Positions 27,001-33,000 of a stretch of 64,000 nt of DNA are shown one piece after another. Every line of letters begins with the position of its first letter. Within the stretch, counting starts at the first letter, position 1. The stretch is from NCBI GenBank assembly GCA_044221725.1, contig JBGAON010000002.1, forward strand, positions 384,001-448,000, written 5' to 3'. Position numbers: made by a program. Source of the DNA: Elusimicrobiota bacterium (GTDB lineage Bacteria; Elusimicrobiota; Elusimicrobia; F11).

Positions 27001-30000
27001 GCCGATATTTCTCGCACCGTTTCAAAGGCGGGTGGCGCATGGCTCAAAGATGTTTTCCCGTTCGATCTTTTTGAAGGCGGATCGCTTACGCCGGATCAAA
27101 AAAGCATCGCTTTCCGTGTCCGGCTGCAACATCCGGAACACACGCTCTCCGAATCCGAAATCACAGGCACGATTGACGCGATAAAGAACGCGCTCAAGGC
27201 CAATTGTGGCGCCCAGCTCCGCTGAATTCTCATATCGCACCCGCCAAGAAATCTGGGCCCAATTAAAATCTCGTCAACAAAAGCCTCTTAACGTTGCCAT
27301 CGTTGGCGGCGGTATTGTCGGTGCCGGTTTGCTGCGGGAGTTCGCGTTGCGCGGCGAGAATGACGTCGTCCTTTTCGAAAAAAAAGATTTCGCATCGGCG
27401 ACGAGTGGATATTCGAGCAAACTCATCCACGCAGGAATCCGTTATCTTGAACAAGTATGGGTTCATTTGAAACACCTTCGCGTCCTCGCCGCTTGGCAAA
27501 ATCTTCGGTTTGTTACTCAGGCTTCGTTGGAACGAAAACGTCTTGGCACGCTCGCTCCGGGCCTCGTCAAACCCAAGCCCATCTTTCTTGTGCTAGCGAA
27601 ATCCGACCCAAGGTCGGTTCTCAGTGTGATTTCAGGCGTTTGGATCTATTATTTGACGCAGCTTTGCCAAGGTCAATTTTTTTCGGTGCCCCGCATGGCG
27701 GTTTCAAAACGAGCAATAAAAAAAGCAGCGCCGGAGCTGGACTCTGACCGAGTAAAGGCCTGTTTTTCATTCTGGGACTCCGAAACCGACGATGCGCGGC
27801 TCGTCATCGAAACGCTTCGGTCGGCGTACGACAATGGCGCGAAAGCGCTCAACTACATGGAGCTAATCGAATATTCCCAGATGAGCGATCATGTCGAATT
27901 TGCGATAAAAGACAATGAGAGCGGAGAAATTCTTCGGCTTCGTGCAAAAAAGTTGATTGATGCGACCGGGCCGTTCGTTGATGACACGCGCCGTCGCGAA
28001 AATGTGACCCGTTCAAATGAGCCTCTTGTGGATCGTGTTGCCGGGGCCCATATCGATGTATACCCGGCCGTGTCCGACAAATCTTTTTACGTGAGCGCCA
28101 GTGACAACCGGCTCGTGTTTCTGCTCAAGCGGAACGAGGACGGCCTTGTCTACACCCGCATTGGCACCACCGAACGTCCGCTTGCCGAAAACGAATCGTC
28201 GGATGATCCAATTCCTACGACCGGCGAAATCGAATATCTGAAATCGATTGCAAAAGAATATTTCCCACAGGCGGTGATTGATAACAAAACGATTGTTCGC
28301 TTGAACTCAGGCATTCGTCCGCTGCGCGCTCAGCACGGCGTTGGAGCATTTCAGAAAAGCCGCGAGCACGATATTCTCGTGGAGGGAAATGTTGTTCGCG
28401 TGATCGGCGTTAAGCTGACGGATTTTCGCCGCGTTGCTGAAGAGGTGGGGGATTTGTTTCATTTGCCTAACAGGAATCGATCCAAAATCGTGCCGATTCG
28501 CTCGGAAGCCGTCGATCGGATTTATTGTGAGGCGTCTATGGAGGAGATTGTGCGCCGGACCATGCCTCTTCATTGGGACGATTACGTTCTTCGAAGAAAA
28601 GGCCTAAAGCCTCTGCTCGATCTGAAGATTCGGCCGAACGAATACCAGTCGGAATTTAATGCGTTCGCGGACCGAATGGGCTGGACATCCGAGCAGCGTC
28701 ACGCCGAAAAAGAAAACGTCAGCCAAAAACGAGAAGTCCCACGCCCGGGGGAAAGATAAGCGTAGGACTCTCGTAATCAGCTGACGTTTGTTAGACGTCG
28801 AAGTTGTTTAGAACGTGACCAAGAATTGCAGGGCGCCCGTGGACGCGCTGTCTTTTGCCACTCCTTTGTCATCCACCCAGAGTTTCTTGTTGGATGTGTC
28901 GTAGCGATATTCCGCACGAACTTGAATATTGTCGGTGAGTTTGTAACCCGGCGTAATTGTGAAGTTCGTTTCGCAGGTGTCTTTGATCAATGTCGAAACT
29001 CCACCCGCGGCGTTGTTGCGGTAGCCTTGCGGATCGGAGAAATATTCCAGACGTGCACCAACCGTGAACTTGTCGGTGAAGTGAACGAGAGGTTGGATGC
29101 CAGCGCCGCTCCAGCTCGCGCGATCATCCTGAAGTCCTCCGCCGTCAAAATCCCCGGCATTTCTTTCGCTACCAGCATTCGCTTGGAGATAAAGATCCGT
29201 CTTCGGAATGATCTTCGTGAGAATTGTGATGTCAGCGCTGTCGCGGATATTGCCGGACTTGCCGTCCACGATGCCATTAACCGTGCTCTGGTTCTGTTCC
29301 GGACCGGACAAACCAGAAATCGTAACGGATAATGGATCGCCGAAGTTCAAGCCGATTTTTCCAACGAGTGTTTTGCCAGGATTGTTGTCATTTGGAACGT
29401 CCCAACCGTTGACCACACCGGCGGCCACATCGAATTTTCCCATTGCGTAGGACAGCACGCCGCCCACATGCGTGAAAGGCTCAGCCAAACCATAAAGATA
29501 ACCACGGCTAATCGTGGGGTTTGCATTGGTCTCGATCACTTCGATACCTTCGAAGGTCGCGAACTTACCCGCTTTAATTCCGAGATGCGTGATCGGGCAT
29601 TTGTAGGTCAAATAGCCTTCTTGAAGAACAACGGCGGATCCACTCGCGCCACCAACGGTCACGTTGGCATCATGACCGGCATCCAAGTCGACCACGTAAC
29701 CAATTCCTTCCCCGAAAGAACCAGCCAGTGATACGTGTGCCGTGTTAGCAATGTTGTTGTTTTGCGCATCGTAGCTGCGAAGAGTGGTCGTTTCCGATGC
29801 GGGTTTGTTGAAGTTATATCCGTACTGAGTATCGACATAACCGCTGATGGTTGGGCCGGTCATCGTTGTTTCACCGTTTACCATCGTTGTTGCTGCTATC
29901 AATGGAAGTACCATCCCAACAGCGCGTAGGATGTTCCCCCTGTTATTCCTAATCATGTACTTAGCCTCCTTAAGTATTAAGCCTCTTTAACCATCGGGAA

Positions 30001-33000
30001 GCAATTTGGCAAAAAAAAACCTTCTCAAGATGATTCCTGAGAAGGCTACATTGCCGAACTGCTCGCCCGCATCGTTGCTTGCGATGTGTGCCTGATACCA
30101 GAAAAGTTTTTTGCGTGTCAACTCTTTTTTATTTCGTTTTTGCAATTTGATTGTGTTTCCTGCGATGTGATATCGTCGCGATATGGAAATTATCGACGAG
30201 CTTACCCAAAAAGTTCAGCAGGCTGCCGAAGAATTGATTTCTCTAAAAAAAGAGCGTCAGCAAACGCTTGCGGAGCTGGATCAGCTTCGGTCACAGTTGC
30301 GCGATTACCAAACGACGCGCCGCGATAACGAAAAATTACGAAGGGATCAAGATCAGCTTCGAACCCGCCTACAGAAGCTCCAAAAGAAGATCGAGAAACA
30401 TTTGCTTGTAGAAACAACGCTGGCATCCCAGATGAGAGGAGACTTCAATGAAGAACGTCCTCAATGAACGCGTGCGCGTCCTTATTTTTGGACGCGAATA
30501 CGAAATGGATCCGGGGGGATTAACACCTCTCGAAGTGCAGAGTTTGGCGACGTTTGTTGACGACAAAATGCGCGAGATCGCCGAAGATTTTTCGATTGTC
30601 GATACACAGAAGGTGGCCGTGCTGGCCGCAATCAACATTGCGTTGGATTATTTGCAGCTCAAAGAGAAAGGCCAATCGAAGGGAAAAGATCTCACCGAGC
30701 AGTTGCAGTCGCTTTCCGAAACGTTAACGCACGCACTGAATCGATAAGTTGGAACTCTTTCAAACCAAACCCGCGCCCGTTATTTCGTCTTCGTCTCCGT
30801 TAGCGGCGCGCATGGCTCCCCGCGACTGGCCGGAGTTTATTGGCCAAGAACATCTCGTTTCCAACGGAAGTTTGCTTCGCCGCGCCATTGAAGCCGATCG
30901 CTTGGGATCGAGTATTTTCTTCGGTCCGCCCGGAACCGGTAAAACAGCGTTGGCACGCATGGCCGCAAAAAAATCGCAGGCGGCCATTGAATACGTGAAC
31001 GCGGTGACAGCGGGTGTTGCCGAACTTCGCAATGTCGTAAAGCGCGCCATTGATCGCAAGCGCGCCAATGGTCAACGCACGCTTTTGATCGTGGACGAAA
31101 TCCACCACTTCAACCGCAGCCAACAAGATTCGTTATTGCCTGATGTGGAGCGTGGGAATCTCACGCTGGTCGGGCTCACGACGGAGAATCCTTATTTTTA
31201 TGTGAACACGGCGCTCATGTCGCGTTCCACCGCGTTTGAATTCAAACCCCTTAGCGATCAGGCTCTGCGACGCATTTATGATAATGCCCTCGTCGATTCG
31301 GATCGTGGTTTGGGGAATTTCAAAACAAATATCTCCGACGAAGCGCGCGATCACTTTATTCGTTGGGCCGAAGGCGACGCACGGCGGATGCTGAACTCGT
31401 TGGAATTGGCAGTGACCACAACAACGGCCAAAGACGATGCAATCGTCATCGATCTCGATGTCGCGCAAGCATCAACACAAAAGCGACCGATTCGTTACGA
31501 CAAATCCGGTGACGAGCATTACGACACAATTTCCGCATTTATTAAATCGATGCGCGGCAGCGATCCCGATGCGGCTCTTTATTGGATGGCGAAAATGTTG
31601 TTGGCGGGGGAAGATCCGCGGTTTGTTGCGCGACGCATAATGATTTTTGCGGCGGAAGATGTTGGTAACGCGGATCCCCAGGCGATCGCGGTCGCCACCT
31701 CCGCGGCGCGAATGGTGGAGATGGTCGGCATGCCGGAAGCGCGAATTCCATTGGCGCAAGCCGTAACGTACGTGGCAACCGCACCAAAATCGAACGCCGC
31801 CTATATGGCCATCGCCAAGGCCGAAGAAGAAGTGAAAACCGGAAAGCGACGAGAGGTACCAAACGCTCTGAAGGATTCGAGCGGCGATGCGAAGTCCCGT
31901 GGGCATGGCGACGACTACCTTTATCCGCACAATTTTCCCGGGCACCATGTTAAGCAAACGTACATGCCGCAACGCGTAAATTTTTACGAACCATCCGATC
32001 AGGGTTTTGAAGTTGAAATCAAAAAGCGACTAGAAGAATGGCGCAAAAAAAATCCAGCGAAGTAATCCCAGTGGAGGAATCCAAGCGTTGGCTTCGGCGC
32101 GCGCTGGTACGTCAACGTCAAGCGATCCCCGAGAAGGAACGCGTGCGGTTGAGCAAGCGAGCGCTTCAATCCTTATTTCGTTCCTCTGATTATAAAAAGG
32201 CAAAAGTCGTCGCCTCGTTCGTCAATTTTGGGAGCGAATTGGTCACCGACGGATTAACGCAGCGCGCATGGAAGGATCGCAAAAAGGTTTTGATTCCTGT
32301 TACTTCGCATGGATTTCACGATCCTTTTTTTGTTTTGTTCTCAAAAAAAGACCGGTTAAAGAAGACCGCGCATGGCCCATTCGAATTGCACCGGAAGAAG
32401 CAACGGGTTCCATTTAATTCCATCGATCTTGTGCTGGTACCGGGACTTGGCTTTGACCAAAAAGGGCGGCGTTTGGGGTATGGCGGAGGCGTGTATGACC
32501 GCATTCTCTCGAAGACGCCGCGGGCGAAACATGTGGGGCTTTTTTTCTCAGCCCAAGGCCTATCGGTTCTGCCGCTGGCCGCACACGATCAAACCATGGA
32601 TGCTATTGTGACGGAAAATCGCGTATAATCGGCCGGCATGGCACTTATTGAAATGATTAAAAATCCAACAGACCTTCGACATTTAAAACCTGAACTCTTG
32701 CCCGATGTGGCGAGAGAAATTCGGAAAAAAATTATTGATGTAACTGCGCAGACAGGCGGGCATCTCGGCGCATCGCTCGGTTGCACGGATCTCGCGGTCG
32801 CGCTCCATTATGTTTTTGATTCTCCGAACGACAAATTAATTTGGGATACCGGCCATCAAGCCTACGCGCACAAACTTCTTACGGGCCGTTGGGATAAATT
32901 CCACACACTTCGTCAGTACGGCGGCATCAGCGGATTTCTCAATCGCAGCGAATCCGAGCACGATGCGTTTGGCGCCGGTCACGCATCAACCGCCATCTCC

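Follow-up and report, generated by a model that had tools for sequence, protein, structure and literature searches.

The scavenging and assimilation of ammonium in the study genome (G000, whose contigs are labelled C1, C3 and so on), a member of the family F11 within the Elusimicrobiota, are probably controlled by a one-component ANTAR antitermination regulon, a reading to which we assign a probability of around 80%. The window, which is the whole analysed stretch of 64,000 nucleotides, holds one predicted target, a porin gene preceded by a composite leader. The relevant features are:

28808..29956, minus strand: BBP2 (PF07642) outer-membrane porin of 382 aa with a C-terminal Phe, a stand-alone gene predicted to be ANTAR-controlled (Pfam and model)
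29965..29971, minus strand: Shine-Dalgarno-like AAGGAGG (sequence)
30011..30019, minus strand: U9 tract of the intrinsic terminator (sequence)
30019..30046, minus strand: terminator hairpin of 12-13 bp, -17.8 kcal/mol, whose 5' arm opens with the P2 3' strand
30044..30055, minus strand: P2 hairpin GGC-AAUGUA-GCC, loop at 30047-30052 with A1, G4 and a C-G closing pair (folds and covariation)
30063..30084, minus strand: P1 hairpin, loop AACGAU at 30071-30076 (A1, G4), with 2 bp, a 2x2 internal loop and 4 bp
30092..30097, minus strand: putative extended -10 box TG-N-TATCAG, with equal spacing in relatives
30116..30121, minus strand: putative -35 box TTGACA, 18-bp spacer, 69 nt upstream of the P2 loop
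30183..30747, plus strand: divergent zapB-like (weak, E 4.6e-4) and zapA (E 4e-17) genes, neighbours outside the regulon

The porin matched the Pfam BBP2 profile well above the cut-off (E 2.2e-56; 192 bits against 26.2), ends in an aromatic residue and is predicted to adopt a beta-barrel porin fold, the model (pTM 0.73) resembling 16-stranded porins (OprP: Z 26.3, rmsd 3.4, 313 residues aligned). The preliminary description had implicated it in nitrogen scavenging, and the gene neighbourhoods, as independent evidence, support such a tie: amtB, PII or GS genes lie within around 4 kb at 58 of 77 homologue loci, these being the best 77 of 588 matches and no random sample. Moreover, in other families of the class the porin is found within or adjoining amtB-PII, glnA and ANTAR clusters. 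NlmA, encoded in the nlmA-glnK-amtB operon of Herbaspirillum, is an outer-membrane barrel linked to ammonium limitation, whereas the F11 porin gene stands by itself and has an attenuator of its own. The same difference holds for the BBP2 porin KSMBR1_3177 of Kuenenia, which according to the accessible part of PMC7438415 is strongly induced by ammonium limitation; the two barrels are compared here as BBP2 members, not as orthologues.

A dual-hairpin element overlapping a terminator had been described ahead of the porin, and both direct reading of the leader and a covariance model bear this out. P2 and the terminator share a strand and are mutually exclusive folds, and an element lies upstream of the porin in all ten family genomes that have a porin match. 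Relative to 200 shuffles the leader scored z -5.56 and its terminator z -5.61, while P1 and P2 alone scored only z -0.99, so that the case rests on conservation rather than on stability. In the study genome the porin P1 has just 2 bp directly under the loop, which counts against the proposed regulon. An Rfam scan of positions 27000-32000 returned no riboswitch or curated family, the lone match being a chance miRNA (E 3.7). A leader peptide was considered and rejected: the short ORF lacks a Shine-Dalgarno sequence in the study genome, is missing in two of the ten porin leaders and is unrelated in length and sequence among the remaining ones.

The covariance model, which the preliminary description lacked, was trained on 24 elements, none from the study genome. 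It ranked the porin leader first genome-wide (33.3 bits, E 4.6e-4; 150 of 661 candidates scored) and, with filters off over six loci of this genome, gave 29.2 bits to amtB1, 22.1 to amtB2, 18.4 to glnA and 14.6 to the leader of the single-GAF ANTAR gene. In the 24-element alignment neither of the two closing C-G pairs nor either G4 varies, the G4 and the P2 closing pair having been criteria for row selection. The stems fit the expectation of at least 3 bp and of a structure conserved over sequence: compensatory changes affect both sides of 9 of the 11 pairs, with a covariation score of 0.547 versus 0.213 when shuffled and at most 0.158 when slid. In the porin P1 of the study genome the stem consists of 2 bp and, beyond an internal loop, a further 4 bp. 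As to the covariation, since the rows were selected and registered by this structure, these figures lean towards it. Three rows came from G006 (71% complete, 14% contaminated), whose C77 cluster groups with Omnitrophota-type ANTARs and may be foreign; the one glnA III leader examined there (a second copy was left out) carries no element. Outside the training set, 11 model hits were recovered in family relatives, of which 8 precede nitrogen genes and 3, lacking a terminator, are due to chance.

A plain descriptor was not enriched genome-wide, with 21 hits for P2 plus terminator versus 13 in the reversed sequence and 9-24 in ten Markov controls; adding P1 gave 7 versus 2 and 1-6, respectively. 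Looser scans returned background (178 versus 169 reversed; 195 versus 173-202). Within loci chosen by protein homology the descriptor was enriched, yielding 60 distinct sites versus 3 in the reversed sequence (682 kb). Model hits inside ORFs without a terminator were discarded (G001:C63, G001:C3, G011:C313, G014:C33, G034:C16 and C3:187 kb of the study genome). Two duplicated P2-like/terminator sites on C2 (322769 and 326927), which precede a cyclase-like ORF and a remnant of it, were likewise left out of the membership; the model gave them no score, they have no convincing P1, and a search of 150 other genomes of the phylum (only one from F11) did not recover the cyclase-like gene.

Putative sites in the study genome precede the porin, amtB1, amtB2, the type III glnA and the single-GAF ANTAR gene. 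Constrained folds showed that P2 overlaps the terminator and excludes it in all five leaders, the terminator being favoured by 7.5-17.6 kcal/mol relative to the hairpin fold. The G4 and the conserved closing pair occur in both loops of the porin, amtB1 and amtB2 leaders. A occupies loop position 1 in 37 of 52 P2 and 16 of 29 P1 loops, both porin loops among them, and the P2 loops of the amtB leaders, like the amtB2 P1, have G or C there; in EutV this A1 contacts no protein (PMC8934654, in part). With respect to the sites listed in the preliminary description, the leaders of both amtB-PII operons are borne out by their model scores. For glnA the element itself stands but the canonical dual hairpin does not, as the P1 loop reads AUAACC and is devoid of G4. 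Two items were also missing from the list, namely the fifth site, in front of the single-GAF ANTAR gene, and the fact that another amtB-PII operon, the third one (C1:22.9 kb), carries no element. Considering that this operon and gltBD (C3:167.8 kb) were scanned without finding an element, the regulon is partial. Since the genome encodes a single activator of the REC-AAA-HTH type as well as a sigma-54-like ORF that is truncated, an additional DNA-level layer may exist besides the RNA control. The alternative-sigma layer considered for Omnitrophota was rejected here, as tblastn with the sigma ORF neighbouring the locus L253 gave no match in the study genome. RNA matches came from low-depth contigs of one study, scattered over all genes, and are uninformative on starts, ends and levels.

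The two GAF-ANTAR proteins reported before correspond to two ANTAR genes. The gene for the GAF-GAF-ANTAR protein (C3:180.3-181.5 kb) is followed by nadE, encoding a glutamine-dependent NAD synthetase, an arrangement present in 12 of 12 family genomes, and no element was found upstream of it in the nine loci scanned. Its ANTAR domain (PF03861, E 5.7e-21) keeps the EutV RNA-contact residues given in PMC8934654, namely R142, K143, K149, E160, an aromatic residue at 164 (F164), M172 and R175. Given the missing leader, the conserved position before nadE and an EI-Ntr-like GAF domain, this protein is the likely master sensor. The gene of the single-GAF paralogue has its own element and attenuator in all eight copies scanned.

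Building on the elements, their exclusion of the terminators, their conservation, the domain architecture and the gene context, all read from sequence, the circuit would operate as follows. By default each leader would fold into its terminator and transcription would stop. The GAF-GAF-ANTAR protein, constitutively expressed and co-transcribed with the NAD synthetase gene, would upon nitrogen limitation be freed from a GAF-bound sufficiency signal, bind the G4 hexaloops and hold P2, and RNA polymerase would then read through into the porin, the two amtB-PII operons, the type III glnA and the single-GAF ANTAR gene. The product of the latter would form an induced second tier, as amplifier or tuner, and the porin would let more ammonium, or more of a small nitrogen solute, in through the outer membrane.

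The sufficiency signal is most likely glutamine, by analogy with EI-Ntr, although as an identified GAF ligand we give it slightly less than even odds. The first GAF matches the EI-Ntr (PtsP) GAFs in sequence and fold (3trc and 3ci6, E 4e-13; PRK11061, E 9.6e-29; TM 0.85 by target length), and the EI-Ntr GAF binds glutamine in a nitrogen-status context (PMC4848567, in part); the output there is phosphotransfer, whereas that of the F11 protein is predicted to be RNA binding. GAF similarity leaves the ligand unfixed: NifA is likewise matched by the first GAF (E 1.3e-19), and in other phyla ANTARs of the GAF2 type that lack GAF1 adjoin elements. The signal could reach the ANTAR protein via PII (2-oxoglutarate/ATP/ADP) instead of by ligand binding, as in some diazotrophs the GAF domains of NifA are a target of PII, and the study genome has three PII genes, two of them within the regulon, and no GlnD match. 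We consider this route unlikely, since among solved structures the first GAF is matched best by a GAF from Geobacter and by those of EI-Ntr, and three genomes of the class (G018, G019 and G030) have an ANTAR match without an amtB match. A comparably low probability is assigned to the paralogue being a brake within the same regulon, that is, a poor hexaloop binder that damps the master, for instance via a heterodimer. This would fit its being under an element itself and its Arg at the position of the EutV Met172 plug (in the eight family copies read, a ninth being left out), with Gln or Arg at 147 and His, Tyr or Phe at 164, given that M172A abolishes RNA binding by EutV (PMC8934654, in part). 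Among other GAF-ANTAR loci, elements occur within 1.5 kb upstream at 22 of 63 Met loci versus 0 of 14 Arg loci, the latter all from one lineage, the Acidobacteriota; five Acidobacteria with Arg-type proteins showed no element in 10 amtB/porin loci, and a Met-type acidobacterium has tandem elements ahead of its porin. Against a brake, Arg is not Ala, and R142, K143, K149, E160 and R175 are retained; 5 of 8 paralogue P2 loops, versus 0 of 23 porin/amtB loops, carry U at their second position, which fits altered specificity equally well, and the absence of the paralogue from G007, G008 (99% complete) and G010 indicates that it is dispensable.

Among 11 family glnA leaders, P1 is canonical in four, degenerate in three and deleted in four, the deletions, in G001, G003, G004 and G007, being flanked by a promoter that does not vary and by an intact P2; G005, G008 and G009 are among the genomes with a P1-bearing leader. 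One-hairpin leaders might have escaped ANTAR control, with P2 surviving as a relic or within a constitutive attenuator, or else a P1 might be supplied from a promoter farther upstream; the available text of PMC3369931 has EutV requiring both hairpins in vivo, and that of PMC7496416 has NasR binding a single hairpin only at around 12 uM. Yet the P2 5' strand AGGC, which lies outside the terminator, and the loop G4 are invariant in all ten aligned leaders, whether P1 is present or not. Furthermore, a C(nnnGnn)G hairpin of at least 3 bp is absent from the 100 nt upstream in G001, G004 and G007, the single one in G003 is upstream of the -35 box, and EutV touches a single hexaloop (PMC8934654, in part), making loss of control improbable. 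Far less probable still is that the leaders are ordinary terminators, metabolite riboswitches or leader-peptide attenuators devoid of any ANTAR link. The motif is short and frequent by chance, and the porin leader of the study genome contains a short ORF, but there is no Rfam match, the ORF is missing or unrelated elsewhere, conservation is confined to loop geometry and closing pairs, and elements co-occur with ANTAR genes in several phyla.

The distribution is consistent with ANTAR control. ANTAR was confirmed in 11 of 11 family relatives, and among 41 genomes of the class (kin, not independent) it is present in 24 of 24 with amtB and 21 of 21 with the porin. None of the 13 ANTAR-less genomes has amtB or this porin, and the glnA III leaders of three of them carry no element. 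The claimed lack of GlnE (0 of 12 family genomes) and GlnD holds, with one weak partial match to GlnD, containing a stop, in 1 of 11 relatives; considering that GlnD/GlnE occur in just 3 of 14 control genomes, their absence alone is no argument. Nitrogen control by RNA antitermination, as proposed earlier, is thus supported by the elements, the regulators, the missing GlnE/GlnD matches and the porin-nitrogen link.

The rating of the regulon type as novel has to be withdrawn, as ANTAR control of glnA, amtB and PII genes is already in print (Ramesh 2012, PMC3369931). The targets in its Table S2 comprise glutamine synthetase, amtB-PII, NAD synthetase and ANTAR genes themselves, with tandem elements, and these regulons share with F11 and with EutV/eut, NasR/nasF and AmiR/ami the P1/P2 hexaloops with G4 and a P2 overlapping the terminator. 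Elusimicrobiota, 'porin' and 'outer membrane' are absent from the seven of its supplementary files that were searched. In contrast to those systems, the F11 regulator is a one-component GAF-GAF-ANTAR protein without receiver or kinase, part of the glnA leaders lack P1, and A prevails at loop position 1 in the proportions given above. Geobacter sulfurreducens GnfK/GnfR likewise links ANTAR antitermination to ammonium limitation, in an operon of a hypothetical protein together with glnK and amtB, but GnfR stands under a sigma-54 cascade and is a response regulator that is phosphorylated (PMC2995071, in part), whereas the putative F11 promoters look sigma-70-like, with no kinase implied. GAF-ANTAR proteins form a large ANTAR class with no characterised member named in the accessible text of PMC3369931, and that of PMC7496416 names only PAL and NasR as one-component ANTARs. 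Among the papers listed by literature searches outside subscription journals and bioRxiv supplements, we found none on ANTAR control in Elusimicrobiota or on a characterised GAF-ANTAR. The switch type is therefore known; the sensor type, the self-induced second regulator and natural one-hairpin leaders are unstudied.

At its boldest, and in our view improbably as a whole, the system would dispense with GlnD, GlnE and any kinase and run the nitrogen response on RNA alone, in two tiers. A constitutive GAF-GAF-ANTAR protein would read glutamine directly and antiterminate on single-hexaloop leaders of glnA III as well (P1 having been lost around three times independently), and it would induce an Arg-plug paralogue, serving as feedback brake or recognising loops of its own, along with a dedicated BBP2 channel belonging to a widespread kind of ammonium porin. 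The minimal binding motif has been redefined as one hexaloop (PMC8934654, in part), and the glnA leaders constitute a natural deletion series on whether one hexaloop suffices in vivo. The F11 case offers the GAF-ANTAR class predicted RNA targets together with a candidate ligand and a pair of master and paralogue, and the BBP2 family gains a testable function common to many phyla.

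The noted interval holds, besides its leader, a single gene, and the leader reads as an ANTAR target RNA with two hexaloop hairpins (P1 and P2):

28808-29956, minus strand: BBP2 porin, 382 aa
30092-30121, minus strand: putative porin promoter, read from the sequence (TTGACA, 18-bp spacer, TG-N-TATCAG)
Downstream of the promoter, minus strand: P1, loop AACGAU, read from the sequence
After a short linker 3' of P1, minus strand: P2, GGC-AAUGUA-GCC, read from the sequence
3' of P2, minus strand: terminator, then nine U; its 5' arm opens with the 3' strand of P2

Constrained folding favoured the terminator fold by 13.8 kcal/mol over the forced P1+P2 fold, so the default state of the porin leader is off. 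P1+P2 alone was no more stable than shuffled sequences (z -0.99) and a descriptor scan of the whole genome under study (G000) gave no enrichment over controls; since both are at background, the case for the element is comparative. In 682 kb of loci from relatives, picked by protein homology, the descriptor found 60 distinct sites versus 3 in the reversed sequence. When 24 elements of other genomes were aligned, the C-G closing pairs and the G at loop position 4 were invariant in both loops and 9 of the 11 pairs showed compensatory changes, counts that are optimistic because the rows were chosen by structure. The model made from these elements, thus without a G000 row, ranked the porin leader first in G000 and also scored the amtB1, amtB2, glnA and single-GAF ANTAR leaders. 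Run on the 11 family relatives with an E cut-off of 0.5, it gave 27 matches, 16 of them training rows; the other 11 comprised 8 upstream of nitrogen genes (amtB twice, glnA III, a type I-like glutamine synthetase (GS), an amino-acid permease-PII fusion twice, porin and single-GAF ANTAR) and 3 chance matches. G000 and 9/9 family relatives with a porin match carry the element ahead of the porin, doubled in some. We conclude that the whole is real and works like an ANTAR dual-hexaloop attenuator system, and that the porin and amtB leaders are such attenuators.

The other G000 genes with the element are:

C3:327.9 kb: amtB1-PII
C3:330.0 kb: amtB2-PII, with an extra upstream hairpin
C4:104.5 kb: glnA type III, the sole GS match in G000
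C1:75.8 kb: single-GAF ANTAR gene

The last of these had been missed earlier. No element was found upstream of gltB and the third amtB-PII of G000; the G002 orthologue of the latter does have one. The reported absence of GlnD and GlnE agrees with our searches, as GlnE had no match in any of the 12 family genomes and GlnD none in G000 (94% complete), where glutamate dehydrogenase was not matched either. Among 41 class genomes, amtB and porin are confined to those bearing ANTAR. G000 also carries a 375-aa sigma-54-like ORF that matched only part of the RpoN models (C3:335.3-336.5 kb; L138 772-1899) and one REC-AAA-HTH activator (C5:214 kb). A duplicated hairpin-plus-terminator element, not scored by the model, occurs at C2:322769 and C2:326927 (L187), one copy before a class III cyclase-like ORF (PF00211; 72% identical paralogue at C3:77.5-78.2 kb) and one before a remnant of that ORF's start ahead of an MgtC/DUF4010 gene.

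P2 and the terminator are present in 11 family glnA III leaders, and in the 10 alignable from the -35 box the promoter and P2 are nearly invariant. G001, G003, G004 and G007 lack about 22-27 nt that include P1, the distance from -35 box to P2 loop being 45-50 nt versus 65-71 elsewhere; provided that the promoter is correctly placed, the transcript has just ~8-13 nt ahead of the P2 loop and P1 cannot form. The leaders of G005, G008, G009 and G010 are canonical, and those of G000, G002 and G011 keep the spacing with altered P1 loops. The dual-hairpin structure claimed earlier holds at the porin and amtB leaders and is not canonical at G000 glnA. Because P1-bearing G009 and G010 split the P1-less genomes on the regulator tree, a gene tree taken without formal test as a proxy for genome history, the tree suggests about three losses of P1. 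EutV, a characterised ANTAR antiterminator, is reported to bind a single hexaloop (PMC8934654) yet to require both hairpins in vivo (PMC3369931), which makes the P1-less leaders a natural test. Promoters at glnA III in 10 family genomes and at the porin (30092-30121) share TTGACA-N15-TG-N-TAnnnA, with an 18-bp spacer and no T ending the -10 box; the dominant G000 type has a 17-bp spacer and TAnnnT (17 versus 4-7 at other spacings). The former may represent promoters kept weak on purpose, or an additional layer of control. ANTAR-like single hairpins with no evident terminator occur at L081 (G003 amtB), at glnA III of other families (L103, L105, L106, L108-L111, L118) and at L068, one of them adjoining a ribosome-binding site; these are possible translational or Rho-dependent variants.

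The best candidate for the master sensor is the 405-aa GAF-GAF-ANTAR protein, given that its gene lacks an upstream element in 9/9 loci scanned, is followed by glutamine-dependent nadE in 12/12 family genomes, keeps the EutV RNA-contact residues in sequence comparison and has a first GAF similar to that of EI-Ntr. The EI-Ntr GAF is reported to bind glutamine (PMC4848567), and by analogy we infer that glutamine may be the ligand here. The single-GAF paralogue (243 aa, second GAF type only) forms a separate clade (support 100/99); at >=58% identity it was found in 8/12 family genomes, and a search of other class genomes gave no such match. All 8 copies scanned have a P2+terminator leader, Arg stands in place of EutV Met172 in all 8 that were read, and 5/8 leaders have U at P2 loop position 2, versus 0/23 porin and amtB loops. 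It may act as amplifier, brake or reader of another loop type. Single-GAF ANTARs of the first-GAF type occur at L046, L057, L060 (family f3), L270 and L272-L281, and those of Omnitrophota and Desulfobacterota are of the second-GAF type; either GAF can therefore stand alone.

The modelled porin (pTM 0.73, from 13 sequences) is a barrel whose closest folds are OprP, DcaP and Omp32-type channels; the mature protein has a net charge of -12, with invariant acidic and basic residues at many positions. Its divergent neighbours are zapB-zapA, and a convergent FAD-dependent oxidoreductase (PF01266; 27206-28759, plus strand) showed no link to the regulon. In 77 further homologue loci, the best of 588 matches (Omnitrophota, Nitrospirota, Planctomycetota, Acidobacteriota, Proteobacteria and others), amtB lay within about 4 kb in 52, PII in 48 and at least one of amtB, PII and GS in 58. 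Just upstream of the porin, 10 of these 77 best-matching loci had the element (reversed control, 5 sites), and the loci of distant BBP2 paralogues in G014 and G024 had none. In other families of the class the porin lies downstream of amtB-PII or divergent from glnA III, and a Kuenenia BBP2 porin is reported to be strongly induced under ammonium limitation (PMC7438415). As judged from gene neighbourhoods, the porin's tie to nitrogen is independent of the RNA motif.

At least 578 relatives of the GAF-ANTAR regulators occur in GTDB genomes. Among 79 top-ranking regulator loci, 15 held amtB, PII, GS or porin, and the genes behind elements there were glutamate synthase-like, GDH-like, GS, nadE, Gcw_chp-type porin and ANTAR genes. 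Amino-acid permeases with a fused C-terminal PII domain were seen at L177 (G008:C11, 1104-3239) and L253 (9304-11181), that of G008 behind three tandem terminators with ANTAR hairpins. At L178 (G028:C13, 848-5501) two tandem elements precede an ORF of >1500 aa with a weak ChaN-like match. At L129 (G006:C77) ANTAR, GS, amtB and PII form a full cluster bearing four elements; its ANTAR falls with those of Omnitrophota, by transfer or bin contamination.

The ANTAR mechanism and the nitrogen theme were known, since Ramesh et al. 2012 (PMC3369931) list elements before GS, amtB-PII, NAD synthetase and ANTAR genes, and Geobacter GnfR is described as acting on a hypothetical-glnK-amtB operon (PMC2995071). 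In the accessible text of a 2025 review (PMC12591593) GAF figures solely as domain architecture, and the ANTAR motif is absent from that of PMC2864571. What is added here is the family-wide anatomy, including an attenuator on a stand-alone porin gene, the apparent pairing of a constitutively expressed master and an Arg-plug paralogue that is induced, and a series of P1 deletions for which the promoter serves as a fixed ruler.
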